Source of the DNA: an uncultured Gammaproteobacteria bacterium
Lineage (GTDB): Bacteria; Patescibacteriota; Patescibacteriia; Patescibacteriales; UBA12465
Length of the DNA stretch: 61,277 nucleotides
Assembly: GCA_964587195.1 (NCBI GenBank)
Contig: CAZPKN010000003.1
Location: forward strand, 1 to 61,277
Reading direction: 5' to 3'
The notes beneath the pieces are model-generated. The model had not been told where the DNA came from. It was given only the letters and a program-made list of their open reading frames with translations, and made no database searches. Made by a program: the position numbers and the translations under genes. Positions 37,680 through 59,823 of this stretch are shown here, one piece after another (position 1 is the first letter of the stretch; the number at the start of each line of letters is the position of its first letter).

Positions 37680-37984
37680 AATATTCCCGGGCACCTGCCT
37701 GCCCTGCCTACCGGCAGGCAGGCGGCAGGCAGGGCGCAATTATAATGTATTTTGTTTACGCCATTCAAAGTTCAAAGGATAGCAGAATATATGTAGGTTT
37801 GAGTTGTGATTATGTCAGAAGAATAAATGAACATAATTTAGGTAGAACTCAATCTACTAAGCCCTATAGACCCTGGGTATTAGTATATTCTGAGCAGTGC
37901 AATTCTAGAAGAGAGGCGAGAAAAAGAGAAAAATATTTCAAGAGTGGTTGTGGTAAAGAGTTTTTAAAATCAAATATTCCCGGG
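37680..37984 (+). mobile_element. 293-bp GIY-YIG/palindrome cassette between 12-bp direct repeats of the tRNA 5' end
   Basis: AATATTCCCGGG at 37680-37691 and 37973-37984 flanks a nested palindrome and a GIY-YIG ORF. Confidence 0.6.
37694..37733. repeat. Nested 20-nt palindromic unit
   Basis: CCTGCCTGC[CCTGCCTACCGGCAGGCAGG]CGGCAGGCAGG. Confidence 0.85.
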
Positions 37985-37987
37985 TAG
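37745..37987 (+). CDS. Small GIY-YIG nuclease
   Basis: YFVYAI...IYVG...RRINEHN...EARKRE; the stop codon lies inside the tRNA. Confidence 0.9.
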   Translation: MYFVYAIQSSKDSRIYVGLSCDYVRRINEHNLGRTQSTKPYRPWVLVYSEQCNSRREARKREKYFKSGCGKEFLKSNIPG

Positions 37988-38052
37988 CGCAGCGGTAGCG
38001 CAGTTGGCTGTTAACCAATTGGTCGTGGGTTCGAATCCCACCCCGGGAGCCA
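37978..38052 (+). tRNA. tRNA-Asn (GTT)
   Basis: Acceptor TCCCGGG/CCCGGGA, anticodon arm GTTGG-CTGTTAA-CCAAT, T arm GTGGG-TTCGAAT-CCCAC, encoded CCA. Confidence 0.97.
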
Positions 38053-39645
38053 ACGTAGATTAAGCGAGGTTAAAGCCTCGTTTTTTCTTTTATTTTCGCC
38101 AAAATATGTCGGTTCGAACCTTGCCATTTCGGCATTAAATTTTTCGACGCTATTTCGGAGCGGAATAAGCCAATTATGATAAGAAATGCTAATGTTTTTA
38201 CCAATTATTGCTTGGTTCGAACCTAACTTCTTAATGATGTTATTTCGTGTTTCTTTGTCTCCTTTATCAAACTCTTTTCGAGCTTGAGCACAGAAAATAA
38301 AATTTTCTTTGGTAAGCTCTATTAATTCTGCCTTGCTTGGTTTTGTCTTAACTTCATTTTGGCTTAAAGCTTCAATCTCGGCTTTTAATTTAGTGCGCTC
38401 AGTTAAATAATCAGCATCGTCAAGCATTTTCTTCATTCTCATACTGTTAAGTTCAGATAGTTGATCTTCTAAATCTTTTATTTGCTTTTCTATATCTAGC
38501 TTAGCTGGTTTTTCTGTTTTATCTTCTTCTGTTTTATTCTTTTCTAAATAATCTAAGGCTAAGCTTAAAAACTGGGGATGCATTTCCAGTCTTTTAAGAT
38601 CGTTTTTAACTTGTTTTTCTAATTCTTCTTCTTGAATAGAACCTTCTTTACAGTCAATTTCTTTTTTCTTATGGGTGCAGTGATAGTAGTGATAGGTTTT
38701 AACTTCATTATCTTCTTTAATATATTTTCTTTTTCTCTCAGCGGTAATAGCACAACCACAAAAACCACAGGTAAAAGTGCCTGAGTACATAAAGTCTAGT
38801 TTTTTAACATTTCTTTTATTGCCTCTTAAGCCTAATAATTCTTGAATACGATTATAGTCTTCAAGACTGATTATCGGCTTATGTTTACCAGGGCTTTCTT
38901 TGCCGTTATAAGTGATAATACCGGCATAAAATGAACTAGTTAGCATTTTATACCAAGTACTTCGAGCCAGTGGCCTGCCGCCAGTTTTAGCCTTAGCTCT
39001 AGTTGTGTATTTCCATTCATTATTTAATTTATCGAGCACCTCTTGGGCGGTATAATTGCCAGTTAAAAAGAGCTTAAAAGCCTCTTTTAGAAGCGGTGCA
39101 CGTTTTTTATCGATAATTAGTGTTCTTTGACCTTTCTCAAGCCTCATATCGTTTAAATAGCCCTCAGGAGCCACTCCAGGAAGCCATCCGAGAGATACTT
39201 TCTTCTCTAAACCACGTTTTACATCCTTACCTAGTTTAGAGGAGAAATATTGAGATTGACTAAGAGCTAGTTGAAGCATCATTATACCTTCCGGAGAATT
39301 GTCAAAATTATATGATCCGAATTTTAAGTCTTTAATAATGCCAGTACGCACCAAATAGGTAATAGTTGAGGCATCTATTTCGTTTCTTGATAATCTATCA
39401 GGATGCCAGGCAATAATACCATGCGCTTCACCCTTTCTTATCCTTTTAATCATATCAGCGAAAACTGGCCGATTGTATGGCGAAAAAGCGCTATGTTTTT
39501 CTTCCATAACTTCAACAATTTCTAAGCCGCTAAAAAACTCGCGCACTTTATCCATTTGACTTTCAATGGATAAAGCTTGTCTTTCATCGCCTTCGGTTGA
39601 TTTGCGGACATAGGCAAAATATTTAATTGGATTTTCGCTGTTCAT
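38011..39645 (-). CDS. Large serine recombinase (integrase)
   Basis: AYVRKST catalytic Ser, recombinase domain, CGFCG...YYHC zinc ribbon, coiled coil; start MNSENP at 39645; C-terminus reads through the tRNA antisense. Confidence 0.95.
   Translation of the reverse strand: MNSENPIKYFAYVRKSTEGDERQALSIESQMDKVREFFSGLEIVEVMEEKHSAFSPYNRPVFADMIKRIRKGEAHGIIAWHPDRLSRNEIDASTITYLVRTGIIKDLKFGSYNFDNSPEGIMMLQLALSQSQYFSSKLGKDVKRGLEKKVSLGWLPGVAPEGYLNDMRLEKGQRTLIIDKKRAPLLKEAFKLFLTGNYTAQEVLDKLNNEWKYTTRAKAKTGGRPLARSTWYKMLTSSFYAGIITYNGKESPGKHKPIISLEDYNRIQELLGLRGNKRNVKKLDFMYSGTFTCGFCGCAITAERKRKYIKEDNEVKTYHYYHCTHKKKEIDCKEGSIQEEELEKQVKNDLKRLEMHPQFLSLALDYLEKNKTEEDKTEKPAKLDIEKQIKDLEDQLSELNSMRMKKMLDDADYLTERTKLKAEIEALSQNEVKTKPSKAELIELTKENFIFCAQARKEFDKGDKETRNNIIKKLGSNQAIIGKNISISYHNWLIPLRNSVEKFNAEMARFEPTYFGENKRKNEALTSLNLRWLPGWDSNPRPIG
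38034..38054 (+). repeat. tRNA 3'-end direct repeat, left copy (contains the inferred attL core GAGC at 38047-38050)
   Basis: AATCCCACCCCGGGAGCCAAC, identical to 59803-59823. Confidence 0.9.
38062..38086 (+). terminator. Element-supplied terminator for tRNA-Asn
   Basis: CGAGG / CCTCG stem plus T run, lying antisense inside the recombinase CDS. Confidence 0.65.
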
Positions 39646-39808
39646 ATGATTATTTTTACATAACAAAAAGGGACGGTCCTGAGCACCCAACTAAATATCG
39701 TCAAGAAGACAATACTCGTCGGCAGAACCATCCCTTTTTGGGGGCGAGTATAAAAAAACTTCTTGACTCATTGTATTCAGTTGGGTGCTACTTATATATT
39801 ACTACATT

Positions 39809-39994
39809 TTAGATTTTTTTCAAGTTTCTATGGTATTGCTTATGCTGAGATTTAGTCATCGGCTTATAAGTCTGCTTCACTAGCCATAATAAGTCAGCCG
39901 TCTGTTTATAGGCCTCATCGTCACTTATTTCGATTTTAAAGATCTTCTGATAAAGCTTCTTGAATTCTTTCATGAAGCTTGGCGTAATCTCCAT
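39809..39994 (-). CDS. 61-aa helical protein upstream of the recombinase, possible directionality factor or regulator
   Basis: Compact ORF co-oriented between rep and the recombinase; function inferred from position only. Confidence 0.65.
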   Translation of the reverse strand: MEITPSFMKEFKKLYQKIFKIEISDDEAYKQTADLLWLVKQTYKPMTKSQHKQYHRNLKKI

Positions 39995-40032
39995 ACAAGA
40001 GCGGGAACTATGTTTATTTTACAAAGGATAAT

Positions 40033-40821
40033 TTAGAAACCGTATAAACGGTATTGAATCTTGCCTAACCAGTCGGAACGATATGATTTTTCAAACAATG
40101 GTGGAATATTACCAATAGCGTTAGTTATAAATTCTTTTACTTCTTTAAAGACGGTAATAATAATTGGCTGCTCGAGATTTTTAGAGGCTAATATTTTTCT
40201 CATTCCAAAATAGCGGATATCAAATAAATTTTTGCCAACATATTTAGAAACATATAAGCCTAAATGATTAACATGTTTTATTCTATTTATTTTTACAAAT
40301 CCATTTTGCCAAATAGTTTTTAATTCATCAGAAGCCATTTCAAAATTGACTAATAAATGATAATGAACGGCTCCGCCATTTGGTTTTGGTCTGCCGTAAT
40401 AGTCGTTATCTGATTGAAATTCAGGAATAGCAATATATTTTAAATTTGGTCTTTTTCTCTTTAGTCTTTTAATAAACTTTTTAAATATGGGGTTAGCTTC
40501 AACTAAGCTAGGCACATCAGAATCAAAGGTTAAGGTGATAAATACTTTTAAATCAGGATTAGCGTTTATTAAACGAACAATTCTTGATCTAGTGCGGCGA
40601 AGGGAAAAGTCTCGCATTACTTCAACTTGAAAAGCTTTATTGGCGCATTCTTTAATCTGCTTCATTATCTCTTCTTTTGTGCGACGTTTGGCAGCTTTCT
40701 TCTTTTTCTTCTTTTGGCCAACATGAATAGGCGTCTCGTATTGGTAGAGCTCCACCTTCTTCCCGGATATTATCAATTTGTTCTGATATGTGGCCATCTT
40801 TGAGGAGGGAATATAACTCAT
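40033..40821 (-). CDS. HUH rolling-circle replication initiator (pII functional equivalent)
   Basis: Motif I FITLTF, motif II VHYHLLVN, motif III YVSKYVGK. Confidence 0.9.
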   Translation of the reverse strand: MSYIPSSKMATYQNKLIISGKKVELYQYETPIHVGQKKKKKKAAKRRTKEEIMKQIKECANKAFQVEVMRDFSLRRTRSRIVRLINANPDLKVFITLTFDSDVPSLVEANPIFKKFIKRLKRKRPNLKYIAIPEFQSDNDYYGRPKPNGGAVHYHLLVNFEMASDELKTIWQNGFVKINRIKHVNHLGLYVSKYVGKNLFDIRYFGMRKILASKNLEQPIIITVFKEVKEFITNAIGNIPPLFEKSYRSDWLGKIQYRLYGF

Positions 40822-40993
40822 TAATGACGGAGCTATATTCTTGCTGATATGAATTAAGTTTTCGAACTAAAAGCTCGAAATCAGTAGTTGAGTCAGTTTT
40901 TATTCTTCTAGTAATTCCAAATTTTAAGGTTTTAATTCTTTCTCGAAGCCAAAGGATGTAATCAAATTCTTTTTTAATGTTTTTATATATCAT
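40652..40993 (-). CDS. Hypothetical protein overlapping the rep 5' end
   Basis: 113-aa ORF in a different frame from rep; coding status uncertain. Confidence 0.4.
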   Translation of the reverse strand: MIYKNIKKEFDYILWLRERIKTLKFGITRRIKTDSTTDFELLVRKLNSYQQEYSSVINELYSLLKDGHISEQIDNIREEGGALPIRDAYSCWPKEEKEESCQTSHKRRDNEAD

Positions 40994-41020
40994 ATATTTT
41001 TATCTAATATTCGTAGTGAC

Positions 41021-41155
41021 GGCCCGGTGTGTGCGTATGGTCAAGTTAATTATATTAGGGAAGGGCCGGGCCTCATTTCTAGTCTTAACTCTCATTTACC
41101 GTCTGCCATTTTTCTTTTTTGGCTCCCCCAAGGGGATGCCGCCAAAAAAGAAAAA
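41021..41155 (-). promoter_or_regulatory. Candidate phage intergenic region: plus-strand origin and packaging-type hairpin
   Basis: Minus-strand AACTTG/A at 41047-41041 inside a GGCCCGG/CCGGGCC inverted repeat; 15+5-bp hairpin at 41109-41155. Confidence 0.55.
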
Positions 41156-41368
41156 AACTGCAGCAGCCGGTCGGATCTTTAAATTTTAAAGGGAGCGGAT
41201 TGTCTATCTGTGGCTTTTCATTTTAGCGTCAGCTTATCACCCTTCAAGGTAGTACAAGTCTCCACCTTGACTGTCGCAAGCAATCAGACGCTGTCTTATG
41301 CCTCGCCGATAGATAATCTAAGGCGACATTATCCGGCAATTTAAAAATCAGTCGCCAATTTAATTTTT

Positions 41369-41665
41369 ATGACAATATCAGTCAAATCAAATTGGACAGG
41401 TTCAGAAAATACTTCTGATCTTGTTAGAAAACAGATTGCCGAACGTTGGGGTGAAGATGAAGCCAAACGTTATAATCCGTTTGTTAATTGCTTCACTTTC
41501 AACGGCTGGCTCAAAAACGGCTATGTCGTTCGTAAGGACGAAAAGGCACTCAAGTCTTTCATCATCGTTGAAAAGAAAGACAAGAAAACTGGAGCCGTTA
41601 TTGAGAGACGGCCGAAAACGATTTACCTTTTCTATGAAAGGCAAGTCGAGCCTCAACAGGCTTAA
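41369..41665 (+). CDS. ArdC-N-like ssDNA-binding protein
   Basis: FTFNGWLKNGYVVRKDEKA...IYLFYERQVE resembles the ArdC N-terminal signature. Confidence 0.6.
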   Translation: MTISVKSNWTGSENTSDLVRKQIAERWGEDEAKRYNPFVNCFTFNGWLKNGYVVRKDEKALKSFIIVEKKDKKTGAVIERRPKTIYLFYERQVEPQQA

Positions 41666-41726
41666 ACAATTCAAGGAATCAATCCTTCGGGATTGGTTCC
41701 TTTTTTTGTATAGACAATTTAAAGAA

Positions 41727-42578
41727 CTATCTAACTATTAATTCTTTTTGTTTTAAGAACTCCTCCTCACTTAAAACCCCTCTATATCCGGATTTATGTT
41801 CACGACCACAATCAGAGCAAATGCTAATTGGTCGCCAATAATGTTTTTTGGGGCGAAGCTTAATGTCATAACAACTGTCATAAATTCCCGTTGGCTTAAT
41901 AATTAGACCTTGCTTACATTTCGGACAATTGTCTAAGTCATAGTCATGTCTTTCATGACATTTCTCACAAAATTTATGCTCAAGCTCTAATTTATATTCA
42001 TTCCATTTCTTAAATAGAAGTTTTGATTTAAGAAAAAATCTAAGCTCTGATAACCAGGAGAAAAAACCATTATCTTTTGGATCCGGTTCTTCTTTTAGCA
42101 TTTGCGTTCTATCAATTGAACGTTCTCGAAAAATTATTACTCCGGGAATAAGTCGTAAAATACGAAAACAATCAGTCCATTCATCGATAACTATGCGAGC
42201 ACTTTTGGCGACAAGCGTGATATTTTGGGTTGTGCCATAAATATCAACGTGATGATGTCGATGTTGCTGAAAAAATCTTCTAATCGCTCCGCTTTCATTT
42301 TCCCAGTTTCTTGGATCAAGCGGTTCGGCAATTTCATCACAAATTACAATACAATTTCTTACATCAACAATATCTTCCATTTCTTGATAATAGTGAAGAT
42401 TATTTTCTTCTTTATTCCATTCGCCTAAAACGTCATACCGTTTCCAGTTAATCCACAAATTAGAATAGACTTGATAACCAGCGATAAGATAAGGATAGAC
42501 AAAAGTCGCCATCATCAATGATTTACCGCTTCCCGGGAGTCCAGTTATTAGTTTAAACTTTGAACCATCTAGCGCCAT
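41727..42578 (-). CDS. Zot-like assembly ATPase (pI-like)
   Basis: ITGLPGSGKS Walker A, ICDEI Walker B, FFQQHRH and GTTQ motifs; C-terminal CxxC pairs. Confidence 0.9.
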   Translation of the reverse strand: MALDGSKFKLITGLPGSGKSLMMATFVYPYLIAGYQVYSNLWINWKRYDVLGEWNKEENNLHYYQEMEDIVDVRNCIVICDEIAEPLDPRNWENESGAIRRFFQQHRHHHVDIYGTTQNITLVAKSARIVIDEWTDCFRILRLIPGVIIFRERSIDRTQMLKEEPDPKDNGFFSWLSELRFFLKSKLLFKKWNEYKLELEHKFCEKCHERHDYDLDNCPKCKQGLIIKPTGIYDSCYDIKLRPKKHYWRPISICSDCGREHKSGYRGVLSEEEFLKQKELIVR

Positions 42579-42582
42579 ATAA

Positions 42583-42858
42583 TTATTCTCTTAAACCAGA
42601 ATTATTAATTAATATTTTTATAGCCATAATTGACCATAAGAAAGGATAAACTGAAAATATAAGACCAACTATTTGCCATAAGGTGTCTGTTGGAAAAATA
42701 AAATCTATCAGGCTAGACCACTGTCGAATCATTCCGAAGAAGATTGTAATGTTAGACCAGGGAATCAGGCTATTAACCGCTTGTCCGATAGCGTAAAGCA
42801 GCCCTGATATAAAAGAAGTGACTAAAACTACTTTGATAAATTGAATTATTGCATTCAT
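42583..42858 (-). CDS. pVI-like minor coat protein
   Basis: 91-aa hydrophobic protein between the pIII-like and pI-like genes. Confidence 0.7.
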   Translation of the reverse strand: MNAIIQFIKVVLVTSFISGLLYAIGQAVNSLIPWSNITIFFGMIRQWSSLIDFIFPTDTLWQIVGLIFSVYPFLWSIMAIKILINNSGLRE

Positions 42859-42862
42859 ATGT

Positions 42863-44650
42863 TTATTGTCCGCCTGTCATCTTGTCGATGAAGGCTTTAC
42901 CATTTTTAATTACCCAAAAACCAAAAAGTCCCCACAAAGCCCATTTAATAATTGTTTTAATGGCGAAGAATAATTGATTAGTTTTTTCGGCATTAACTGT
43001 TCCCAGAGTTGAGCTAGAAGTAAAAATATCTTTACCCCATAAAACAACCGTGGCGGTCGAGGTCCCTGTAGTTGGAATTTGAGCGGTTAAATTTCCATTT
43101 ACCGGCGAAAGAAAAGCAAGTTCCGACATAACATCTTTATTAGCACTTGCTTTCCAGGCATCATTTAAATTAGTGTAAATATTAAAAGGGAAGACATTTT
43201 TTAATATGTTTCCTGCTTTATATATTCCGTCAGTTGCCATGGTTGTGAATTTATTTCCGGCAATAATAAAACCTAATTTAAACTTACAGCCAATAACTGT
43301 TAAATTAAGAGCCGGCACATCAACGCCAAATATTTCTGGCGGCGGTGTATTCCAATCTTCTTCACTACAAGCCGCCTCATACATAACCGCATCATCATAA
43401 AAAGGATTAGTTGAGCTAGCGGCTAAAATATCAGCCACAGTAGGAATTTCAGTCGGTTGCCAATTAACCGTTACTACATGAGGAATAGTTGTTGTCGCTT
43501 CTACGTCTCCTAAAGTAGGCGACCAATATGCTGCCAAATGTCCAATTACCTCGTAATGAACATAACCAGTCGTTGAAGCGTTTCCCGTTAAAGTAAAATA
43601 ACTGTTGCCGTTTGATTTGCTTGTGAAAAAGCCTGTTGTATCGATAATTGTGCTAGTAGCAATAAATGTGCTGGTAGACCAATCGGGGCTAATTTCTTTT
43701 ATTTCAATATAATCATAAGGGGTAAAAACATCTTCGTTATATAGATAACGAACAATAGCGGTTGATTGATTAGAAAAATTATAAGGATTAGAGAAAAAGA
43801 ATAAACTGATATTATTAGCGTTTGGGTTGCTAGCACATTCACCGCAATCAACTGGGCAAGTAGAGCAATTTTCTATTTCTGTATGACATAAAGTGTCACC
43901 GCAATAATATGGCGAAACATATTCGCCATAATTTAAAACTACAATTCCTAAAACAGAAATATAGCCAGGATTACCATCAGACCAAGAAAAAGATTGTCCC
44001 GGTAAATCTTGGATTTTATAAGCCGAGGAAACGCCAACTCCAAAATTCCAACCTTGACCGACAGCGCCGTTGGTAAGAGTAAATCCTGACGGAGGTGTTA
44101 CTGATTCATTGCCTGACCAAAACCAAGAAACCACCATTGAATTATCATTTGTAAGAGATATATAACTAGAATCTTTTGAATAACCATTATTGTATGGAGT
44201 CGTTACCCAGGGATTATTTTGATCAACATTGCAATAAACTTGAATTTGAGCCGCTTGGTCATTTGATCCGTTCCAATTAAAATTTAAGTAATGCGTGCCT
44301 GCTTCTGGACTTAATAATGAAAAAACATATCCGCCCATATTGCTTTTAATCGGACCACTTGACCAAGTGTTTAATTGTTGAGTCATTGATGTGCCCCCAT
44401 AATCTATTGTCACAGAATCTGAATACCAGCCTTGTGTCGCCACTAAAAGTAGGGAATTGTAGCAATCCGTCGGTACTGTAAAAGGAATAGAACGAACATT
44501 ACCATTTAAGTTTCCCGGGTTAGTGCTGTCTATGTATGTACTAGCTCCTAAATAAATATTTTCTTGAGCGTGAGTTATTTTACTCATGCCAATAAAAGAA
44601 AAGAAAACAATAAATAAGAAGACAGTAATTTGTAGTAATTTATTTTTCAT
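42863..44650 (-). CDS. pIII-like adsorption protein
   Basis: Signal peptide ending THA, beta-rich domains, Cys-rich linker, C-terminal TM anchor; canonical gene position. Confidence 0.75.
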   Translation of the reverse strand: MKNKLLQITVFLFIVFFSFIGMSKITHAQENIYLGASTYIDSTNPGNLNGNVRSIPFTVPTDCYNSLLLVATQGWYSDSVTIDYGGTSMTQQLNTWSSGPIKSNMGGYVFSLLSPEAGTHYLNFNWNGSNDQAAQIQVYCNVDQNNPWVTTPYNNGYSKDSSYISLTNDNSMVVSWFWSGNESVTPPSGFTLTNGAVGQGWNFGVGVSSAYKIQDLPGQSFSWSDGNPGYISVLGIVVLNYGEYVSPYYCGDTLCHTEIENCSTCPVDCGECASNPNANNISLFFFSNPYNFSNQSTAIVRYLYNEDVFTPYDYIEIKEISPDWSTSTFIATSTIIDTTGFFTSKSNGNSYFTLTGNASTTGYVHYEVIGHLAAYWSPTLGDVEATTTIPHVVTVNWQPTEIPTVADILAASSTNPFYDDAVMYEAACSEEDWNTPPPEIFGVDVPALNLTVIGCKFKLGFIIAGNKFTTMATDGIYKAGNILKNVFPFNIYTNLNDAWKASANKDVMSELAFLSPVNGNLTAQIPTTGTSTATVVLWGKDIFTSSSTLGTVNAEKTNQLFFAIKTIIKWALWGLFGFWVIKNGKAFIDKMTGGQ

Positions 44651-44804
44651 CTTTTTGGTTCGTTATTTCTCGCCAATTTTTATAAATTTCATCTAGCTTA
44701 AGCCGGTCGTGATAAAGCCTAGGCTCGGTAAAAGATTTATAGAATTGATAATTTAGATAAACGAGAATAACTATTAAAATCACGAGTAAAATATTGGTAA
44801 GCAT
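44640..44804 (-). CDS. 54-aa single-TM protein (not in ORF track)
   Basis: MLTNILLVILIVILVYLNYQFYKSFTEPRLYHDRLKLDEIYKNWREITNQKDEK*; overlaps the pIII start. Confidence 0.6.
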   Translation of the reverse strand: MLTNILLVILIVILVYLNYQFYKSFTEPRLYHDRLKLDEIYKNWREITNQKDEK

Positions 44805-44858
44805 AAAATTATTTTAAGAAGGGAGTTTTCGCCCCGCCGGTTAAAGCGGGGCGATAAA

Positions 44859-45107
44859 CTATTTGATCGTGCCCCTGATTTTCTTTACGCCCCACATAAT
44901 ACCCTTGATAATCAAAGTTAAAGTGATGACGGCGCCGAACACTCCGAGGATATAAGGGATAAACGCATAAGCGTTATCCTTTAATAAATCGGTGGTGCTA
45001 GCTAAAGAATTAGTCAGGTCCGGATCGGCGGCCGCATGAGCGAAATTAGTACTTAAACCAAGTGCGCCTATGAAAGCCATAAATCCGAGTCCAATCTTCT
45101 TAAACAT
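44859..45107 (-). CDS. Major coat protein (pVIII-like)
   Basis: Signal peptide ending AHA, acidic N-terminus, one TM helix, basic tail KKIRGTIK; SD-like GGGGGTG 6 nt before ATG 45107. Confidence 0.85.
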   Translation of the reverse strand: MFKKIGLGFMAFIGALGLSTNFAHAAADPDLTNSLASTTDLLKDNAYAFIPYILGVFGAVITLTLIIKGIMWGVKKIRGTIK

Positions 45108-45130
45108 ATTTTTCACCCCCTTTCTAGTCT

Positions 45131-45232
45131 TTATTTATTTTTGTTAATAAAGAACGGAATAAGAATAAGACCGAGAAATCCAGCCCATAGGCACCATTTT
45201 AATAATTCATTTACTGCTTCAAATTCGGTCAT
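45131..45232 (-). CDS. 33-aa pIX/pVII-like minor coat protein (not in ORF track)
   Basis: MTEFEAVNELLKWCLWAGFLGLILIPFFINKNK*. Confidence 0.7.
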   Translation of the reverse strand: MTEFEAVNELLKWCLWAGFLGLILIPFFINKNK

Positions 45233-45236
45233 ATAA

Positions 45237-45335
45237 TTACAAACTATCTTTTATCTTTTTAAGCCCCCAAATTATCAAAAGGATGATAATTAAAGGCGTG
45301 TAGATCTGAACGAATTCAATGCCATTTATTTCCAT
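45237..45335 (-). CDS. 32-aa pVII/pIX-like minor coat protein (not in ORF track)
   Basis: MEINGIEFVQIYTPLIIILLIIWGLKKIKDSL*. Confidence 0.7.
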   Translation of the reverse strand: MEINGIEFVQIYTPLIIILLIIWGLKKIKDSL

Positions 45336-45493: not shown

Positions 45494-45560
45494 ATAATAA
45501 TTAATTTAGAAATCGGAGCGGACTTACAGGATAAAAATATTTCCTTGCCGCCCCATATTT

Positions 45561-52245: not shown

Positions 52246-53050
52246 TATTAAACATAATCAGATACAACACGACAAATTAGCTTCAACTTATAATATTAAA
52301 CATTCCGAAATTTATAATATATACGAACAAAGTAGGTTAAAAAAAAGTATAGATTTTTGTATCAAATCTGTAAATTCTAATTCTTCAGTAAAGGTTTTAG
52401 ATTTTGGCGCTGGAACTGGAAATCTTTCCCATATATTTCTGGAAAAAGGTTGCACTGTTACTGCCTGTGATGTATCGCAAAAGTCTCTAAATATTCTAAA
52501 AGATAAATTGCCTTCTAATAATCTTGATACTGTTTTATACAACGGTCTTAAATTGCCGTTTGAGGATAATACTTTTGATATTACTGCAACGTATTCAGTT
52601 TTACATCATATACCTAATTATATAAGTGCCGTAAAGGAAATGATTAGAGTCACAAAGAAAGGTGGATTGATTTGTATTGATCATGAAGCAAATGAAAATA
52701 AATGGAATCCATCAATTGAATTAATAGAGTATAATAATTTAACTAAACAAACTATATTTGAACATATTACAAAATTATTAATTGCCAAGGAATTATTAAC
52801 CTTTGATTTTATTAAAACTGTTTTTATCAAATTTTTTATAAATAAAAAATATCAAAGAGAAGGTGATATTCATGTTTGGAGGGATGATCATGTAGAATGG
52901 AAAAAGGTTAATGAGCTTATTAAAAAAGAAAAATGTGAGATTTTTAAGGAAGAAGATTATTTAATGTATAAACCCAAGGGAGGATTAGAAATATATGAAA
53001 AATATAGTAAGTTAACAAATGATACTAAATTAATTGTAATAAAGAAATGA
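52229..53050 (+). CDS. Class I SAM-dependent methyltransferase
   Basis: VLDFGAGTG, LPFEDNTFD and SVLHH motifs. Confidence 0.9.
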   Translation: MKILNNIKHNQIQHDKLASTYNIKHSEIYNIYEQSRLKKSIDFCIKSVNSNSSVKVLDFGAGTGNLSHIFLEKGCTVTACDVSQKSLNILKDKLPSNNLDTVLYNGLKLPFEDNTFDITATYSVLHHIPNYISAVKEMIRVTKKGGLICIDHEANENKWNPSIELIEYNNLTKQTIFEHITKLLIAKELLTFDFIKTVFIKFFINKKYQREGDIHVWRDDHVEWKKVNELIKKEKCEIFKEEDYLMYKPKGGLEIYEKYSKLTNDTKLIVIKK

Positions 53051-53988
53051 AAAAAATAATTATTACTTTAACTAAAACAATAATAGCAATATCGCTATTA
53101 GGATATTTGTTTTCACTAGTTGATTGGGATACTTTTTTAAGTGCAATTAAAAATGCTAATATTTTTTATATTTTAGTTTCTGCCTTTATGGCATATTTTG
53201 GTATTTATATTAGTATATTAAAATGGAGTATTTTTTTAAAAAATTATGGAATTGTTATTTCTAAATTAAAACTTTATTCTATTTATTCAATAAGCGCTTT
53301 TTTTAATAATTTTTTACCAACTACTGTAGGAGGTGATTTTTATAGAATTATTAGTTTAAATAAACAAATTCCAGTCAAGAAGAAAGAAATTATTTCATCT
53401 ATTATTTTAGAAAGAGGATTTGGTTTTTTGTCTTTATTCCCAATTAACTTTTTATTAGCACCTTTTTATTATAAATTTTTATTAAATAAGAGCTTTCTAT
53501 TAATTCAGGTGCTTATTGTAATAGGTTTTATTTCAATAATTTTTTTAATTTTTAAATATAATTTACTAATTAGATTAAAAAATAAACTAATAAAAAAAGA
53601 ATTTATTATATTAAACAAATTTCATAGCTTAGTTATTTCTATTTCAAATATAAAGAGTAAAAAAACGTTGATATACGGATTCTTGAACTCAATTGTTTTT
53701 TGTTTGACTATTGCTACTGCGAGATATATTTTATTTTTAGCATTCAATATTCAAGTAGATTTTTTTTATATATTGCTAGTTAGTTCTATAGCGCAAATTA
53801 TAGGAATACTTCCAATATCTCTTAACTCAATAGGTGTAAATGAAGGATTGAGCGTTTTTTTATTCAGTCTCGTTGGCGTTCCTATAGAAATATCTTTAGT
53901 TGTCGCATTAGTTGGAAGAGTATCTCTAATAGCGACTAGTTCTCTGGGGGGATTATTTTATTTTTTTGATAATAAAATTAAATTTTAA
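53047..53988 (+). CDS. Flippase-like membrane protein (LPG synthase TM / UPF0104 family)
   Basis: FFNNFLPTTVGGD and LPISLNSIGVNE motifs; multi-TM. Confidence 0.85.
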   Translation: MKKIIITLTKTIIAISLLGYLFSLVDWDTFLSAIKNANIFYILVSAFMAYFGIYISILKWSIFLKNYGIVISKLKLYSIYSISAFFNNFLPTTVGGDFYRIISLNKQIPVKKKEIISSIILERGFGFLSLFPINFLLAPFYYKFLLNKSFLLIQVLIVIGFISIIFLIFKYNLLIRLKNKLIKKEFIILNKFHSLVISISNIKSKKTLIYGFLNSIVFCLTIATARYILFLAFNIQVDFFYILLVSSIAQIIGILPISLNSIGVNEGLSVFLFSLVGVPIEISLVVALVGRVSLIATSSLGGLFYFFDNKIKF

Positions 53989-53999
53989 AAAATATTTGC

Positions 54000-56180
54000 T
54001 TAATTTAACCTTATTAACGTTAAAATAGGGTAAATATTTAATTTAGATTTTTGGTCATTAAATAAATTTTTCTTTGGATAAAATTGTTGAACTATTTCTC
54101 CATTTTCAATTATACTTCTTAGAACAGGATTAGAGTCTTTATGTTTATAGGAGTCATAGGTCAAAATAGCATATACATTTTTTTCTTTTAATAAAATATT
54201 GTCAAGATGATCATCATTCATTATGACAGGAGATCCGGTATAAATATCCCAATCTTGATTCTCTTCTATTATATATTTATTGTTATTCCATGCTATATAG
54301 TTCTTAAAAAAATCAATCTGATCTTCAGTGTAATTGTATTTTGGGTATTGAAAAGATCCATTAGAACTAATAATCTCTGTGTCCCTTAGATGATATTTAG
54401 CCTTATAAATTCTAGAAAAATTAAATAGTTTGCCAACCAAAGGATATTCTATAATAACCGTGCTTTCTTTAGGTATATATGCTACTAAATTATTCCACGG
54501 AACCGATGCTTCTATGGTCCACCCAAGATAGCCAGTTTTCATTAAATTTAAGTTATATAAATTGCTAATAATAAATACTATGAATATAAAATAAAATATT
54601 ATTTTAGATACTTGAAGTCTAACGAAATAAAAGCCATAAGCCATAATCGCTACCAACATAAAACTAATGGGAAATAGATATCTTACGTCAAGTATGTTTT
54701 TACCAAAAACGTAACCCAATAAAATTATTAAACCGACAATCCACGCCAATAATATTTTTAAAAATTTATCTTTTTTAAATAAATTAATAATTGTTATTAG
54801 TATAATAATTATTAATCCAATATTTTTTTGATAATAAAAAATGTTTATAATATTTTGCAGATGATTACTTAATTTAAATGTGATATTTCTTATAATAAAA
54901 TTATAAATTGAATTATCATAAAATATTATGTAAACTAGAAATAGAGATAGTATTAACAACAATGAAATAGTAATATAAAAAACATTTTTTCGGTCTCTAA
55001 TTAGTTTATTGAATACTAGCATTGAATAAAGAAGTATTAACGAGAAGAGTCCAATATTGTGTCCAATAAAGATATTTGAGAAAGTTATTAATAGAAACAG
55101 TAAAGAGCTGATTAAAAAATCCTTCAAATTATTAGATTCGTATATTTTTTTACCTATTAAAATGCCCGTTATTAGGATGATTGCAGAAATAACATATTCT
55201 CTCGCTATCATGGAATATAATATAAAATACCAATTAAGCCCAAATAAAAAAACCCCTAACAATGCTATTTTTTTTAGTTTAAATATATTTTTTATCAATA
55301 TATATATTAAAAAGGATAGTAATATTTTTAGTACTACATTAAAAAATCTTAATTGATAAAAAATATCATCAAAAATTCTATAAAAAAAAGACTCTATCAA
55401 TGAATATACTATATTTCGATTATATGCTATTCCCGTACTTGTTTCGCCATAAAATTTCTGGTGATCTATAATATTTGAAACAGATAAATTCGTGTAGGCC
55501 TCATCTATATGGAATGGTACTTTATTTATAAAATATAGAGTTAAAATTGAAGACATTATTATAATAATGAGTAACAAAAAACTATAAATCACGCCTTCCT
55601 TGTAAAAAAAACATACCATTTTTTTTATAATAGGAATCTTATTTATCCTTGGAAACTTATCGGCAAATTCAGTTTTTCTTTTATCCTCAGCTATTTGTTC
55701 AGTTATTTGTTCTCGGTCTATCTCTTTTTCCACCCTCTCTCTATTATGCCAAAAAGTTAAGCCACCACTTAAAATCGCTAGTACTGTTATAATAACTTGA
55801 TATTTATTTATCCAAGCTAAATCAATAAACTTTTCTAAATAACTAAATTGCCCCAGCGCTATTATCAGCAAAAGAAAAAGAAAAAGATAGGAAATAATAT
55901 CCCACCTTTTTTCAACAATGAAATTTAAAACATTAATTAATATCTTTTTTGTCTGACCGTGAAATGGCCATTTGATATTTAGAATAAAACCTTTTATTTT
56001 TATAATTATGTCCCTCTCAAAGTTAACAAAATAAAATATCGCTAGAAATATAGCTAGGGAATTAGTAATTACCGTAAAAGCATCTTGTATATTTTGGCCA
56101 ATATTAAATAGACAAAAAATAGCTACTATTAATAATAATATTGATATTCCGTATTGTTTTATAACTCTTATCATAATCAT
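54000..56180 (-). CDS. GT-C fold glycosyltransferase (ArnT/PMT-like) with extra N-terminal TM region
   Basis: FHIDEAY, FGLNWYFILYSMIAREY and RYLFP motifs; start coupled to the upstream stop (TAATG). Confidence 0.8.
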   Translation of the reverse strand: MIMIRVIKQYGISILLLIVAIFCLFNIGQNIQDAFTVITNSLAIFLAIFYFVNFERDIIIKIKGFILNIKWPFHGQTKKILINVLNFIVEKRWDIISYLFLFLLLIIALGQFSYLEKFIDLAWINKYQVIITVLAILSGGLTFWHNRERVEKEIDREQITEQIAEDKRKTEFADKFPRINKIPIIKKMVCFFYKEGVIYSFLLLIIIIMSSILTLYFINKVPFHIDEAYTNLSVSNIIDHQKFYGETSTGIAYNRNIVYSLIESFFYRIFDDIFYQLRFFNVVLKILLSFLIYILIKNIFKLKKIALLGVFLFGLNWYFILYSMIAREYVISAIILITGILIGKKIYESNNLKDFLISSLLFLLITFSNIFIGHNIGLFSLILLYSMLVFNKLIRDRKNVFYITISLLLILSLFLVYIIFYDNSIYNFIIRNITFKLSNHLQNIINIFYYQKNIGLIIIILITIINLFKKDKFLKILLAWIVGLIILLGYVFGKNILDVRYLFPISFMLVAIMAYGFYFVRLQVSKIIFYFIFIVFIISNLYNLNLMKTGYLGWTIEASVPWNNLVAYIPKESTVIIEYPLVGKLFNFSRIYKAKYHLRDTEIISSNGSFQYPKYNYTEDQIDFFKNYIAWNNNKYIIEENQDWDIYTGSPVIMNDDHLDNILLKEKNVYAILTYDSYKHKDSNPVLRSIIENGEIVQQFYPKKNLFNDQKSKLNIYPILTLIRLN

Positions 56181-57664
56181 TAAAAAGCAAATACCCAAAT
56201 AGGATCTTGTTGCCCGGTTTTATTATAAAAAATTAATTTTTGTTGATTAATTAAATCATTAATCTCTCTATCTAACCTAATTCCAGTCATATTGTCAACT
56301 ATAATATAGCCAGTCTTTGTTTCTGTTAACTCTTTTAACTGCTCCGCAGTTTTAATAGTAATAGCATTATTATAATATTCTCTTTCGGCCAACTTGCTTT
56401 TATTTAATTTGCGTCCATCTAAGCCAATTGCTAGCCAATAATCACTTCTGCCTAAATAGACTTTATCAAGTTGTGTAAAAGCAGAAACAATTACCTTATC
56501 TTCGCTCCAACCCTGATCTGCAATCGCTTGATAGGCACTTTTGAAATCTGGTTGAGGAGTATGAGGCTCTAAGTAATAATAAGTAATCGGTTTTAAAACA
56601 AAAGTATTGGTCTGTAAATAATTAGAAGCAGTAATTACTAAGATTAAAATACCTAAACCAAGTAGCCAGGAATATTTAAATTTTTTGCTTACTATATTAA
56701 TTACATAAGCTGTTAGGATAAATAGGATGGGTAGGATGAAAAATAAATAACGAAAATGTAAAGTATCAGCGCTAAAAGTTATTATTAAATAGGGAAGTAA
56801 ATAAGCAACAATTAGACCAATTTTGGTTTTTATGTTTTTTTCTTTTAAAACTATAATAACTGTCCCCGCTAAAGCCATAACTACAATTAGGGGTAAATAA
56901 TCAATTAGAAAATTCTGATAATTATGACCAATAAAAAAATTATTAGTGCTAGCTTTTCTAAAAAAGTCTAAAAATAATTTAACTAATAGAGAGATTATTC
57001 CTAAGCCGCTTAAAGCAATTACTATTAATTTGTTTTTGTCTTGAATTATTTTTCGCAACTCTTCTTTTTTAGTATTAAATAAATTAATGAGTAGTATAAG
57101 GGCATAAATACCAATTAATAAATAACCAAAATAATGGCTTAAAATAGCCGCTAAGGTAACTAGTACCAATAAGACTAGTTTTTTATAGGAAAATTTATTG
57201 AGCAGGGAATTAAAAAGGTAGAGAGCGAGAAGAAAGAAGAACTGTAGTTGGATATACATTCTCGCCTGCCTGCTCCAGGCTATTTCCCAATAAGATAAAG
57301 TGGTTAAAATAGCGGCGAAGAAGCCTACTTGTTTATTAAAATATTGACGCCCTAAGAAATAAATCATTAATATAACCCCGATTCCAAAAATGACTGCCGG
57401 TAATCTTGTGGCTATTGGATTAAAACCGCCTAGCTTAACCGCCCCAGTAATTAAATAATTATTAAGAAGATAATGAGGTCCATAAATTTTGTCTGAGTCA
57501 AGTATGGGGTAGCCTTTTTCTAGAGTGCTCAACACTGCATTTAAGGTATAGCCTTCGTCTATCCAGTAAGACTGTTGGTCAATTTTATAGAATCGCAAAA
57601 ACAAACCATAAATAATAATTATAGAAAAAAAAGAAAATATTAAAATTTTATGATATTTTTGCAT
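56180..57664 (-). CDS. GT-C fold glycosyltransferase (ArnT/PMT-like)
   Basis: SYWIDEGYT, RLPAVIFG, SRQARMY and RYLFF motifs; ~11 TM segments. Confidence 0.85.
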   Translation of the reverse strand: MQKYHKILIFSFFSIIIIYGLFLRFYKIDQQSYWIDEGYTLNAVLSTLEKGYPILDSDKIYGPHYLLNNYLITGAVKLGGFNPIATRLPAVIFGIGVILMIYFLGRQYFNKQVGFFAAILTTLSYWEIAWSRQARMYIQLQFFFLLALYLFNSLLNKFSYKKLVLLVLVTLAAILSHYFGYLLIGIYALILLINLFNTKKEELRKIIQDKNKLIVIALSGLGIISLLVKLFLDFFRKASTNNFFIGHNYQNFLIDYLPLIVVMALAGTVIIVLKEKNIKTKIGLIVAYLLPYLIITFSADTLHFRYLFFILPILFILTAYVINIVSKKFKYSWLLGLGILILVITASNYLQTNTFVLKPITYYYLEPHTPQPDFKSAYQAIADQGWSEDKVIVSAFTQLDKVYLGRSDYWLAIGLDGRKLNKSKLAEREYYNNAITIKTAEQLKELTETKTGYIIVDNMTGIRLDREINDLINQQKLIFYNKTGQQDPIWVFAF

Positions 57665-57871
57665 GTGGATAACTTTTTACTTATTAATATTTTATCATAT
57701 TTTTAGCCAAAATATAAGGGTATTTTAAATAATTTAAAAAATATGAAAAATAACCTTGTTTTTTATCATTTATAGTATTATAATAAATATATTAAATAGT
57801 AAATAGAGCTAATTTAATTTTGCTGTATTTGCTGCAAAAATTTTAAAATATTTTATAATTAATTTGAGTCT

Positions 57872-59467
57872 ATGAAAAAGTTTAAAAACTACTTTTCCAA
57901 AATCTTCAAAACTAAAGCGGTATTAGCAATGTTGATTATTGGTCTCGCCATCTCTCCGACGGTTTTTGCTCAGTTTGCTCGTCAAACTGGAGGTCCCGAT
58001 TGGGGCTATGGTTACGGTTACGGTTACGGCTATGGCTACGGCTTTGACGGTGGCACTATTGCTGGTTATCGTACAACGGGAGCTGCATCTTCAACTTATG
58101 CTTATGGCTACGGCTATGGTTATAAAGCTGATGGTGTGACATATGATGCAAGTAATGGGTTTGAAGTTACGCCAGCTACTATGAGTAGTTTGGTCCAAGC
58201 AGGTATTATGATTCCTAGCGGATCAAACCCTTCTAATACTAGTGCAATTACTTTCGCGCAACAAGTCGCTCTTGCACCAGTAACTGGAGTTTCTGTTGTT
58301 ATTCCGCAAGGGGTTGTTATGACATCCAATTCTGGAAATTTTGATATGGCTGATTTAGCAGCTGGGGCAGCGAGTTTAACCGGCTTATCTACTGATGTTG
58401 ATCTTGCTGGTTCGCTTTCGTTTGGTGTGCCTAGTGTAGGGTTAACACTTAATCCAGCTATTCAAATTTCTATCGCAGTTGATTCTGCTTTAGAAGGTAA
58501 AACATTAAAAATTTACAGAAAGGATGCCGGCGGTTCATGGGTTGAAAGTCCTTCCGGAACAGATGCAACTTGTACTGTAACTAGTGGTGTTTGTACTTTT
58601 AGTACTACTCATCTATCATCTTTTGGTGCCGGTGATGTTTATACTTGGAATTATGGATCATATGGGTCTTGTAGCGTTTCTTGTGGTGGAGGAACACAAA
58701 CCAGAACTGCTACTTGTAAAAATTCTAGCGCTGAAACCGTAGCTAACTCTTTCTGTTCTGGAACAGCAGTAACATCTCAATCTTGCAATACTCAAGCTTG
58801 TAGCTCTGGCGGAGGAGGAGGCGCAATTGTTAATAATTGTAGCTCTGTCGTTTATGCAGATTGGGGTTCTTGTGTTAATGGTTTTCAATTTAGATCAGTT
58901 TTAAGTCAAACTCCAGCTGGTTGTTCATTAACTGCTCAACAGCAAATAGATTCTTCTAGAGCCTGTGTCTTAGGCGAAGAGCCTATCGTTGTTACCCCTC
59001 CAGTTGTTACTCCAGGTAGTTCTGAAGCTAGAGCTGATGTAAAACAAGTGATGAATAATGAAAGATCATTAGTTTCTAAGATTAATACCGCTCTAACTAA
59101 TCGCTTAGCTGGTCGTATTTTGCTTCAGGTTGAAGAAAAAGGACAAGCTTGGTATATTGAGCCAGTTAGTAAGCAAAAACATTTCATGGGACGTCCAGCT
59201 GACGCCTTTGATATGATGCGTCGCTTTGGTCTTGGTATTAGTGAAGCTAATTTTTCTAAGTTCGAAAAATCAGGCGTTCCAGCTCGTTTTGCTGGTCGCA
59301 TATTCTTAAGAGTTAAAAGCAAAGGTGAAGCCTACTATATTAATCCAGTTGATATGAAAATGCATTACTTAGGTCGTCCAGCTGATGCCTTTAACTTAAT
59401 GAGAAGTAAAGCTTTGGGAATTTCTAACGCAAATATCAGACAAATCCCAGTGGGTGAAGTTAAATAA
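57872..59467 (+). CDS. Secreted surface protein with (GY)n tracts, a TSP1 repeat and a duplicated C-terminal domain
   Basis: Signal peptide; WGYGYGYGYGYGYG; WNYGSYGSCSVSCGGGTQTRTATC; two copies of (RL/RF)AGRI(L/F)L.V..KG.A(W/Y)YI.PV. Confidence 0.85.
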   Translation: MKKFKNYFSKIFKTKAVLAMLIIGLAISPTVFAQFARQTGGPDWGYGYGYGYGYGYGFDGGTIAGYRTTGAASSTYAYGYGYGYKADGVTYDASNGFEVTPATMSSLVQAGIMIPSGSNPSNTSAITFAQQVALAPVTGVSVVIPQGVVMTSNSGNFDMADLAAGAASLTGLSTDVDLAGSLSFGVPSVGLTLNPAIQISIAVDSALEGKTLKIYRKDAGGSWVESPSGTDATCTVTSGVCTFSTTHLSSFGAGDVYTWNYGSYGSCSVSCGGGTQTRTATCKNSSAETVANSFCSGTAVTSQSCNTQACSSGGGGGAIVNNCSSVVYADWGSCVNGFQFRSVLSQTPAGCSLTAQQQIDSSRACVLGEEPIVVTPPVVTPGSSEARADVKQVMNNERSLVSKINTALTNRLAGRILLQVEEKGQAWYIEPVSKQKHFMGRPADAFDMMRRFGLGISEANFSKFEKSGVPARFAGRIFLRVKSKGEAYYINPVDMKMHYLGRPADAFNLMRSKALGISNANIRQIPVGEVK

Positions 59468-59491
59468 TCTAGTTATAAAATAGAATATTAC

Positions 59492-59518
59492 AAAAGACCT
59501 GTGTTTACAGGTCTTTTT
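59492..59518. terminator. Bidirectional terminator, copy 2
   Basis: AAAAGACCTGT-GTTT-ACAGGTCTTTT, differing from 45952-45976 by one loop base. Confidence 0.8.
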
Positions 59519-59579
59519 GTATATTAGAGTGTAGTTAAAAATATTATTATAATAGTGTTTAGGATTGAGGCCTTATATT

Positions 59580-59628
59580 TTAACTATTATTAGCCACACT
59601 AGTTCGAACTTTGTCCACGACCCCGAGC
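59580..59628 (-). other. Inferred attR P-arm encoding the alternative recombinase C-terminus
   Basis: Minus strand reads LGVVDKVRTSVANNS* in frame from the shared GAGC; contains GTTCGAA. Confidence 0.6.
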
Positions 59629-59667
59629 TAATAAAAAAATGGCTAATTTTAGCCATTTTTTTATTAG
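59628..59667. terminator. Long A/T-rich hairpin, probable original tRNA terminator (B' arm)
   Basis: CTAATAAAAAAATGGCTA-ATTT-TAGCCATTTTTTTATTAG, perfect 18-bp stem. Confidence 0.65.
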
Positions 59668-59670
59668 TTT

Positions 59671-59823
59671 GTGGGTAAGAATGAGAACCCTCGGGTTCGC
59701 ACTGCCGAGGATAGCGAGGAATCGCCAGCCTGCCTGCCGGTAGGCGGGCTTGCTGGCAGTTCCGAGCGGCGCAGGCAGAATAGGGCGGCTTTGCCGCCCT
59801 ATAATCCCACCCCGGGAGCCAAC
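59671..59823 (+). repeat. tRNA-Asn 3' fragment with a T loop interrupted by GC-rich hairpins
   Basis: GTGGGT / GGGTTCG ... AATCCCACCCCGGGAGCCAAC; includes the 20-nt palindromic unit at 59729-59748. Confidence 0.7.

Follow-up and report, generated by a model that had tools for sequence, protein, structure and literature searches.

Several short palindromic elements that spread through genomes have been described. Repetitive extragenic palindromic (REP) sequences and REPINs are short, GC-rich and mostly intergenic, occur as many solo copies, some of them beside the gene, for each single-copy gene of the RAYT nuclease (an IS200-like HUH Y1 transposase), cause no target duplication and are probably acted upon as single-stranded hairpins. 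Elements of the IS200/IS605 type insert strand-specifically beside hairpins in single-stranded DNA, also without target duplication, and have small non-autonomous derivatives; they need a Y1 transposase and a specific tetra- or pentanucleotide as target. The Rickettsia palindromic elements (RPE) are about 100-150 bp long, are restricted to Rickettsia and lie in frame in essential protein genes as well as between genes; we know of no cognate nuclease for them. In the mitochondria of yeast and other fungi, where the genome is AT-rich, very short GC-rich palindromic clusters are mobile and insert their hairpins into each other, while the short tRNA introns of the Thermoproteales have spread among many tRNA positions and are removed from the RNA by the splicing endonuclease. 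Here we describe a palindrome of 20 nucleotides (nt), which we call U, found at two sites in a 61,277-nt stretch of DNA from an uncultured bacterium (contig CAZPKN010000003.1, referred to throughout as the window). On the sequence evidence we conclude, with high confidence, that U is a miniature repeat that spreads by insertion and has its home in a module made up of a GIY-YIG nuclease gene and tRNA sequences.

Two groups of nucleases bear on the gene of this module. Free-standing GIY-YIG homing genes, such as that of SegB in the tRNA gene cluster of phage T4 (PMC2330249), are likewise found between or next to tRNA genes, but the Seg proteins include domains for DNA binding, and the genes spread through the repair of double-strand breaks when two genomes infect the same cell; the partial tRNA duplication and the dispersed 20-nt repeat that we find here are both foreign to Seg genes. 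Slx1 cuts one strand at branch junctions, and bacterial Slx1-like proteins represent the minimal GIY-YIG form and are predicted repair proteins (PMC1564403). The same paper on the GIY-YIG superfamily is silent on tRNA linkage and palindromes, and thus links neither to Slx1 or UPF0213 proteins.

The loci compared with the window are stretches of about 8 kb (L numbers). A scan for CCTGCCTRCCGGYAGGCRGG with one genome per species gave at least 120 matches, of which the 120 listed are referred to as U-selected loci. For a test in the reverse direction we used 80 metagenome loci picked solely by similarity to the GIY-YIG protein.

U at its two sites in the window

The consensus of U is CCTGCCTGCCGGCAGGCAGG. 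Site 1 (37694-37733) is a nested pair of palindromes that reads CCTGCCTGC|CCTGCCTACCGGCAGGCAGG|CGGCAGGCAGG: the inner 20-mer CCTGCCTACCGGCAGGCAGG, a G8>A variant at 37703-37722, splits an outer perfect copy (37694-37702 and 37723-37733) at 9|11, just as the original prediction for this DNA had claimed. Upstream of the pair lies AATATTCCCGGGcA (37680-37693, plus strand), a copy of the leader and positions 1-9 of tRNA-Asn, the beginning of which forms with the intact gene a 12-nt direct repeat, AATATTCCCGGG, at 37680-37691 and 37973-37984. Downstream lies GCGCA (37734-37738, plus strand), which by comparison with the intact tRNA (TCCCGGGTAGCGCAGCGG) is a copy of positions 10-14, and the whole site therefore reads as a copy of the start of tRNA-Asn, AATATTCCCGGGcA followed by the nested U and GCGCA, against AATATTCCCGGGTAGCGCAGCGG in the intact gene. 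These matches place U within a duplicate of the 5' part of the tRNA gene next to it; this is the central point, and it was absent from the original prediction.

The right arm of the fragment is followed by ATTATA and then by the ATG of a minimal GIY-YIG nuclease gene of 80 amino acids (aa) (37745-37987, plus strand; Pfam PF01541, E=8.5e-16), a layout that recurs in L121-L200. The distance from the end of the nested U to this ATG is 11 nt, in agreement with the position claimed for it upstream of the GIY-YIG start. The stop codon TAG (37985-37987) is built from nucleotides 8-10 of tRNA-Asn, gene and tRNA overlapping by 10 nt; at other loci the tRNA begins 2-7 nt before the end of the GIY-YIG protein match. 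The tRNA-Asn gene (GTT; 37978-38052, plus strand; ARAGORN, and Rfam RF00005 with 72.8 bits) is intact and constitutes a natural empty site for the upstream U. Since it is the only tRNA gene in the window, the "tRNA hotspot" said to lie between the two copies of U is not a cluster, but the notion survives in another sense, as this one gene has a GIY-YIG cassette on its 5' side and a serine-recombinase island on its 3' side.

Site 2 is a solo copy, CCTGCCTGCCGGTAGGCGGG (59729-59748), with two mismatches to the consensus and a minus-strand match of 19/20 to the inner unit of site 1. It lies between the stem and the loop of a host hairpin, GGAATCGCCAG / CTTG / CTGGCAGTTCC (59718-59763). In the DNA fold, removal of U leaves an 11-bp imperfect hairpin with the CTTG loop, and the interruption of a hairpin by a reverse-oriented unit, as originally proposed, is thereby borne out; read on the minus strand, U is located where the loop meets the 3' stem strand (CAAG^CTGGC). 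In 100 shuffles of the window there were 0 matches to U. Rfam, with gathering thresholds on the whole window and in E-value mode on 59550-59900, returned the tRNA as its sole match and covered neither site. In RNA runs 9-15% of the words of the locus were present, probably from the tRNA itself.

Contigs from other public metagenomes, aligned to the window locus, supply natural alleles of these sites. One contig of run X4 (depth 40) spans 37627-38011 minus exactly 20 nt at 37703, and thus has a single U in place of the nested pair. A contig of run X6 joins 37679 to 37973, skipping 293 nt, with the 12 nt of AATATTCCCGGG fitting both sides; this allele is without the tRNA fragment, both copies of U and the GIY-YIG gene. 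A diverged relative in run X5 has, as the continuation of a contig, the hairpin of site 2 lacking U, its stem being a covarying one (GAAGTGATAG CTTG CTATCATTTC), whereas no U-less allele of site 2 was found in the same strain lineage, runs X1 and X4 both having U there. At more than 40 loci the flanks of U, once rejoined, match the adjacent intact tRNA, so that precisely 20 nt have been inserted and no target sequence is duplicated. U thus behaves as a discrete unit of insertion, polymorphic between close strains, and the consistent pairs of filled and empty sites on which the original prediction depended are found both between strains at 37703 and in the comparison with adjacent tRNAs. The difference of one unit at 37703 points to ongoing gain or loss of U.

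Distribution of U and its association with the GIY-YIG gene

The original prediction allowed that only the copies in the window might exist. U is present in at least 120 genomes of the one-per-species scan, while fewer than 10 matches are expected in 596 Gb for equal base frequencies. Among the matches listed, the carriers belong to at least 8 phyla and the flanks of U are unrelated: they include many lineages of the candidate phyla radiation (CPR), Bacteroidota, Ignavibacteria, Omnitrophota, Planctomycetota, Nitrospirota and Chloroflexi, as well as uncultured Gamma- and Deltaproteobacteria and Bdellovibrionales, and among cultured isolates Winogradskyella echinorum, Olivibacter oleidegradans and Flagellimonas yonaguniensis. 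The GC content of the loci ranges from 26% to 72%. Viral contigs contribute 48 stretches with U, and one predicted viral contig of 29.5 kb (L228, L237, L239) has six copies. All loci examined contain 225 copies, 129 of them perfect and 57 with the commonest change, G8>A (equivalent to C13>T on the other strand). Only 36% of the copies fall in long open frames, as opposed to 85% of the background bases; U is depleted there and is mainly intergenic. The identity of U across phyla may be ascribed to horizontal spread of a conserved nuclease. In the literature searched, outside of which lie many subscription papers, we found no description of the sequence of U, of the peptide LPAGRQ that it encodes (see below) or of the tRNA-GIY-YIG module.

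The reverse test gives the clearest measure of the link with the nuclease. With a match defined as at most 2 mismatches within 100 nt upstream of the ATG, U precedes 50 of 78 GIY-YIG genes, against a background of 0.66% per 100 nt (binomial p~6e-85) that derives from 25 other copies in 381 kb of these loci, or about 1 per 15 kb; the expected co-occurrence of repeat and gene is therefore present. Many of the remaining genes have a 19-nt or indel-altered U upstream. A same-strand tRNA is found at the stop of the gene in about 65 of the 80 loci, its start lying between -7 and +120 nt relative to where the protein match ends, and these tRNAs include those for Arg, Leu, Asn, Lys, Phe, Gly, Thr and Met. 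Conversely, a GIY-YIG relative occurs within the 8-kb stretch in 7 of the 120 U-selected loci, in 5 of them with U just upstream of its start. Most copies of U are solo, and the distribution is of the REP/RAYT kind that had been anticipated. Clustering of the genes around U in the same 120 loci revealed no common neighbour except the GIY-YIG gene in a few; IS200-like genes and reverse-transcriptase genes were seen in 2 loci each, numbers too low to carry weight. The former comprise an IS200-like (RAYT-type) transposase 136 nt from U in L047 (3807-4178) and another within 1.5 kb in L010 (1210-1632), and the latter are reverse-transcriptase-like open reading frames (ORFs) in L012 (1504-2796) and L054 (4233-5222). 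Both Ekhidna lutea and Flagellimonas/Muricauda sp. SCSIO 64092 (complete genome CP095413.1) possess the same module, with U degenerate or nested and not canonical. When clades of the GIY-YIG protein were set against palindrome variants, the 80 loci proved too closely related, with canonical U predominant.

From these loci, the home module of U, present in many bacterial phyla, consists of a 5' copy of a tRNA split by U, a GIY-YIG gene of about 80 aa and an intact tRNA gene. The copy begins at about -9..+1 of the tRNA and extends to +27..+55, and U lies 10-90 nt before the ATG. As the rejoined flanks of U equal the 5' part of the downstream tRNA at practically all of these loci, the intact tRNA serves as a built-in empty site, and the point of insertion can be located on the tRNA fold. 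On the tRNA-sense strand, U is immediately 5' of the 3' strand of a stem in 21 of 35 non-redundant cases (24 if G.T pairs are allowed), a criterion that 21% of control positions satisfy (p=5e-7); the mirror side accounts for 3 cases. Examples are GGATA^GAGC and GGTAGA^CGC in the D arm, and TTCTAA^GCTGG and CTCAAAA^TCTGC in the anticodon arm. Insertion of U into U, seen at five independent loci (the window, L020, L026, L060 and L066), always occurs at 9|11 (11|9 on the other strand), near the apex and within about one nucleotide of the loop/3'-stem junction. Among solo copies, stems of at least 6 bp that abut the junction are enriched 7.6-fold, yet they concern only about 8% of the copies, and 4-bp stems show no enrichment (12% versus 11%); a simple hairpin-apex rule was dropped for solo copies on the latter grounds. 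The proposed targeting of hairpin apices thus holds for tRNA arms and for U itself, with the loop/3'-stem junction in place of the apex, and does not extend to the large majority of solo copies, for which no clear flanking stem was detected.

The module occurs in several arrangements. L155 (3700-4640) and L198 have tandem arrays of the form U - tRNA part - GIY-YIG - tRNA start, with two to three genes; these arrays, and the allele that lacks 293 nt, suggest that the GIY-YIG cassette is itself mobile. The start codon of the L155 gene comes from the tRNA sequence GGTCATG (variable loop/T-stem), the last three letters of which are its ATG. In L173 (3560-4760) a full copy of tRNA-Arg with U in its D-loop lies downstream of the GIY-YIG gene and the intact tRNA-Arg upstream, the opposite of the usual order, and two more variants of U are nearby. 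At L130 and L132 other palindromes, CCTCCCGAAGGGAGG and TCCGCCAAAGGCGGA, occupy the same D-loop positions of the tRNA copy upstream of GIY-YIG, which suggests a wider family of hairpin units using the same sites.

The variation of U is itself informative. The double changes that recur preserve pairing in a shifted fold, in which positions 1-6 and 11-16 form a stem, 7-10 a loop and 17-20 a tail: at the pair 5-12, C-G has been replaced six times by T-A and three times by A-T, and the pair 4-13 is also compensated, while the common single variants fall in the loop 7-10 or give a G.T pair. These compensatory changes point to selection on a single-stranded form of U. Length variants of 16 nt (CCTGCCGGCAGGCAGG), 19 nt and 24 nt also exist, and some of them differ by the 4-nt period of the sequence.

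U contains no stop codon in any frame, and insertions that had been expected in proteins are indeed found. In the U-selected loci six copies lie in frames that are open on both sides, all of them 21 nt long (U plus one base) and all read as LPAGRQ. In tryptophanyl-tRNA synthetase (TrpRS; L095) the alignment with PDB entry 6ncr has a gap of exactly seven residues, GLPAGRQ. Ribosomal protein bS6 (L069) is, over the span that aligns, about 5 residues longer than solved bS6 sequences, with LPAGRQG in the loop before the conserved WG motif, and in an FtsK-like protein (L018) the insert is in a variable linker. For the other three copies the open frame is the sole basis.

By sequence comparison and structure modelling, the protein is a minimal GIY-YIG nuclease of the Slx1/UPF0213 clade that consists of the catalytic domain alone. 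Residues Y5, Y16, G18, R26, H30, N31 and E62 are invariant in 35 homologues, and these include the catalytic Tyr, Tyr, Arg, His and Glu. The AlphaFold model (mean confidence score pLDDT of 93) has the GIY-YIG beta-beta-alpha-beta-alpha-alpha topology, and the closest structures are UPF0213 BH0048/EF2693 and the nuclease domain of Slx1 (root-mean-square deviation of 2.1-2.5 A over about 70 residues), with I-TevI behind; Foldseek gave 1zg2 and Slx1, and a profile search of the PDB gave 1ywl (E=9e-12). The Slx1/UPF0213 nucleases (EF2693, BH0048) are the best matches in both sequence and structure; like the window protein they are minimal domains with no auxiliary ones, and the cutting of branched DNA by Slx1 where single strand meets duplex fits an insertion point between loop and 3' stem. 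The family has at least 6,533 clusters of proteins of 77-84 aa, annotated solely as "GIY-YIG nuclease family protein" or "putative endonuclease", and its members from CPR and Bacteroidota are 50-64% identical to the window protein.

Possible mobilisation of U by the nuclease, and alternatives

U shares with REP sequences the traits listed at the outset, i.e. a short GC-rich palindrome repeated mainly between genes (225 copies in the loci examined), a preponderance of solo copies over a single-copy nuclease gene that has some copies beside it, the lack of target duplication and a probable action on single-stranded hairpins. It differs in its enzyme, a hydrolytic GIY-YIG nuclease and not an IS200-like HUH Y1 transposase; in its 20-nt sequence being identical across phyla, whereas REPs are lineage-specific; in the location of its master gene on the 5' side of tRNA genes; and in its in-frame copies in proteins. 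Two defining features of REP/RAYT systems are missing: no HUH Y1 gene flanked by the repeats was found, as an IS200-like ORF occurs in just 2 of the 120 listed loci, and there is no 5' tetranucleotide of the GTAG/GGAG type, the flanks of U having no consensus except the avoidance of A at +1 (7%). U is therefore not a member of the REP/RAYT group, but by analogy it probably works in a similar way. From IS200/IS605 elements, with which it shares strand-specific insertion at the side of hairpins and the lack of duplication, U is set apart by the absence of an associated Y1 transposase and of a fixed tetra- or pentanucleotide 5' of the insertion, in place of which there is a stem-loop geometry. 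It also lacks the target-site duplication that, together with terminal inverted repeats, marks miniature inverted-repeat transposable elements, as the insertion is of exactly 20 nt and no flank is duplicated. Like a homing gene, the cassette is present or absent in collinear genomes (run X6, with the 293-nt cassette missing), but the protein, a catalytic domain of 80 aa (77-84 aa among family members), contains no separate DNA-binding domain for a long asymmetric site. The survival of palindromes in frame recalls the RPEs, although U is far shorter at 20 nt (21 nt in frame) and crosses phyla. The mitochondrial clusters and the archaeal introns belong to other hosts and other machinery, while U occurs in bacteria and in redundant copies of tRNA genes, not in the working gene.

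In our best reading, U is a REP-like non-autonomous hairpin element serviced by the GIY-YIG nuclease. As the best supported mechanism we favour, if only slightly, one in which the nuclease mobilises U: it would nick single-stranded hairpins and leave the joint to be closed by enzymes of the host. The argument for this role comes from the association with U and from the Slx1-like fold. The nuclease of the tRNA-linked module would be structure-specific and would nick hairpins in single-stranded DNA where the single strand meets the duplex. Like a 5' flap, the loop/3'-stem junction has single strand 5' and duplex 3', a polarity that would make it an Slx1 substrate. U would fold on its own, with a 6-bp stem (1-6/11-16), the loop 7-10 and a 4-nt tail, and would be placed in the nick either as an excised hairpin or by copying, after which host enzymes would seal it. 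If placement is driven by the nuclease, solo copies of U would stand to the GIY-YIG module as REP sequences stand to the RAYT gene. Selection would purge hits in the working tRNA, so that U would build up in the redundant 5' copy, and in coding regions the survivors would be the rare 21-nt in-frame versions that read LPAGRQ. The partial duplication of the tRNA might arise from staggered nicks some 30-50 nt apart, or from the entry into the D-loop site of a whole unit (U - tRNA part - gene - tRNA start); since the latter would recreate the D-loop site, it would also explain the tandem arrays.

A number of observations weigh against mobilisation by the nuclease. The outer U of the window is at tRNA position 9^10, outside any loop, and in 7 of 35 cassettes the insertion is at position 14/15 of the tRNA-Leu D-loop, away from the stem junction. 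About 90% of the solo copies have no stem of at least 5 bp at the junction, and therefore hairpins either are not required or are too short to detect. The arrangement tRNA 5' part - U - tRNA part is found without a GIY-YIG gene in L003, L006, L021, L044, L170 and L192, and the 29.5-kb viral contig with six copies of U contains no GIY-YIG gene of the U-linked family. The favoured mechanism leaves the origin of the partial tRNA duplication unexplained, and there is no obvious way in which a catalytic domain of 80 aa could read a sequence of 20 nt. Finally, GIY-YIG enzymes hydrolyse DNA and perform no strand transfer, which leaves the joining step to host ligase or repair.

The strongest alternative is that U is a functional part of the module, i.e. 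a hairpin that disables the redundant tRNA copy, a block to recombination between the two tRNA copies or an operator or 5'-untranslated-region element of the nuclease gene, maintained there by selection, and that the solo copies have a separate origin, for instance in gene conversion or repair templating. This would account for the presence of U or a variant upstream of most genes of the family, always in a non-essential tRNA copy, and for the fact that the redundant copy often has several palindromes (L124, L140, L141, L175, L249), as if disabling it were favoured. We nevertheless consider it unlikely: the position and orientation of U relative to the ATG are not fixed, local regulation is insufficient to explain exact 20-nt inserts in unrelated places that include essential proteins and U itself, and the one-unit difference between strains at 37703 implies ongoing gain or loss.

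Less probable still is that U is moved by another agent, an IS200/IS605-type (RAYT-like) transposase or host replication and repair, for which the GIY-YIG cassette is just a neutral, hairpin-rich landing pad. Duplication-free insertion in one strand beside hairpins is a hallmark of HUH single-strand transposition, IS200-like genes do occur near U in L047 and L010, U-bearing 5' fragments of tRNAs exist without the GIY-YIG gene, and in 9 of the 120 U-selected loci a tRNA gene without a GIY-YIG gene is preceded by U at a distance of at most 150 nt. Against this, the two IS200-like genes among the 120 listed loci are not flanked by U on both sides, no tetranucleotide is conserved beside U, and the association with GIY-YIG, a highly conserved protein, is far stronger and extends across phyla.

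Slippage, or hairpin-induced duplication of a (CCTG)n CC GG (CAGG)n tract, would explain the 4-nt periodicity of U and its variants of 16, 19 and 24 nt, but it can produce neither the same 20-mer in unrelated flanks across many phyla, nor the same tRNA position in dozens of different tRNAs, nor in-frame copies in TrpRS and bS6 and a strain difference of exactly one unit; this very improbable origin was rejected because of the unrelated flanks, the recurrent tRNA positions and the exact one-unit allele. That the same sequence occurs in very different organisms, many of them known from metagenome-assembled genomes, might raise the suspicion of a sequencing, adapter or assembly artefact, but we give this practically no credence and rejected it, as U is present in genomes of cultured isolates (and, as degenerate variants, upstream of GIY-YIG in CP095413.1, a complete genome), invariably lies in the interior of contigs, has compensatory variants, is in frame in conserved proteins, has a consistent position in tRNA copies and recurs in independent runs from different studies.

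If mobilisation by the GIY-YIG nuclease is indeed causal, a minimal Slx1-like enzyme would join the short list of enzymes that spread interspersed repeats, and a function would be at hand for thousands of tRNA-adjacent genes annotated as "GIY-YIG nuclease family protein" in CPR, Bacteroidota and others; it would also account for the recurrent appearance of tRNA-gene fragments, hairpin clutter and 7-residue inserts in conserved proteins. A hairpin-specific enzyme of this size would be a very small candidate tool for structure-directed nicking of DNA. Being identical across phyla, U offers a practical marker of horizontal exchange, and the existence of cultured carriers makes the idea open to direct testing, with Flagellimonas/Muricauda sp. 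SCSIO 64092, Ekhidna lutea and Salinimicrobium sediminis as candidate hosts of the nuclease family. A bolder and rather doubtful extension would make U the smallest piece of mobile DNA on record, a single-stranded hairpin of 20 nt that a bare 80-aa Slx1-like nuclease, helped by host ligase, excises and pastes, or else copies, at the junctions of hairpins; the nuclease gene would spread as a tRNA-embedded cassette that restores the tRNA which it interrupts. This would be a new class distinct from the HUH, DDE, serine and tyrosine enzymes, one that crosses phyla and writes a 7-residue peptide (LPAGRQ+1) into essential proteins.

The island downstream of tRNA-Asn

A gene for a large serine recombinase (38011-39690, minus strand), with Resolvase, Recombinase and Zn-ribbon domains, is located at tRNA-Asn. 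A 21-nt direct repeat, AATCCCACCCCGGGAGCCAAC, occurs at 38034-38054, i.e. at the 3' end of tRNA-Asn, and again at 59803-59823, and the GC content between the repeats is 32%, compared with 40% outside. The repeats, the drop in GC and the recombinase together identify an element of about 21.8 kb integrated in the 3' end of tRNA-Asn. Site 2 is inside this island (38011-59823), about 55 nt from its far end.

Near the same end the island encodes a secreted-looking protein of 531 aa (57872-59467) that contains the tract GYGYGYGYGYG and, in its C-terminal part, a pair of repeats resembling each other (…QAWYIEPV… / …EAYYINPV…). The region 59585-59780 is repetitive in several unrelated metagenomes, where contig depth reaches about 630 at 59597-59623 and many short contigs stop; it may be a structured repeat of unknown kind at the end of the island, without a match in Rfam. 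Directly before the attachment-site-like repeat, a perfect 10-bp hairpin, ATAGGGCGGC-TTT-GCCGCCCTAT, is present at 59781-59803, and GC-rich palindromes similar to it (CCGCCAGCTGGCGG, TCCCGCCAATGGCGGGA and others) are found near U in L014, L022 and L109.

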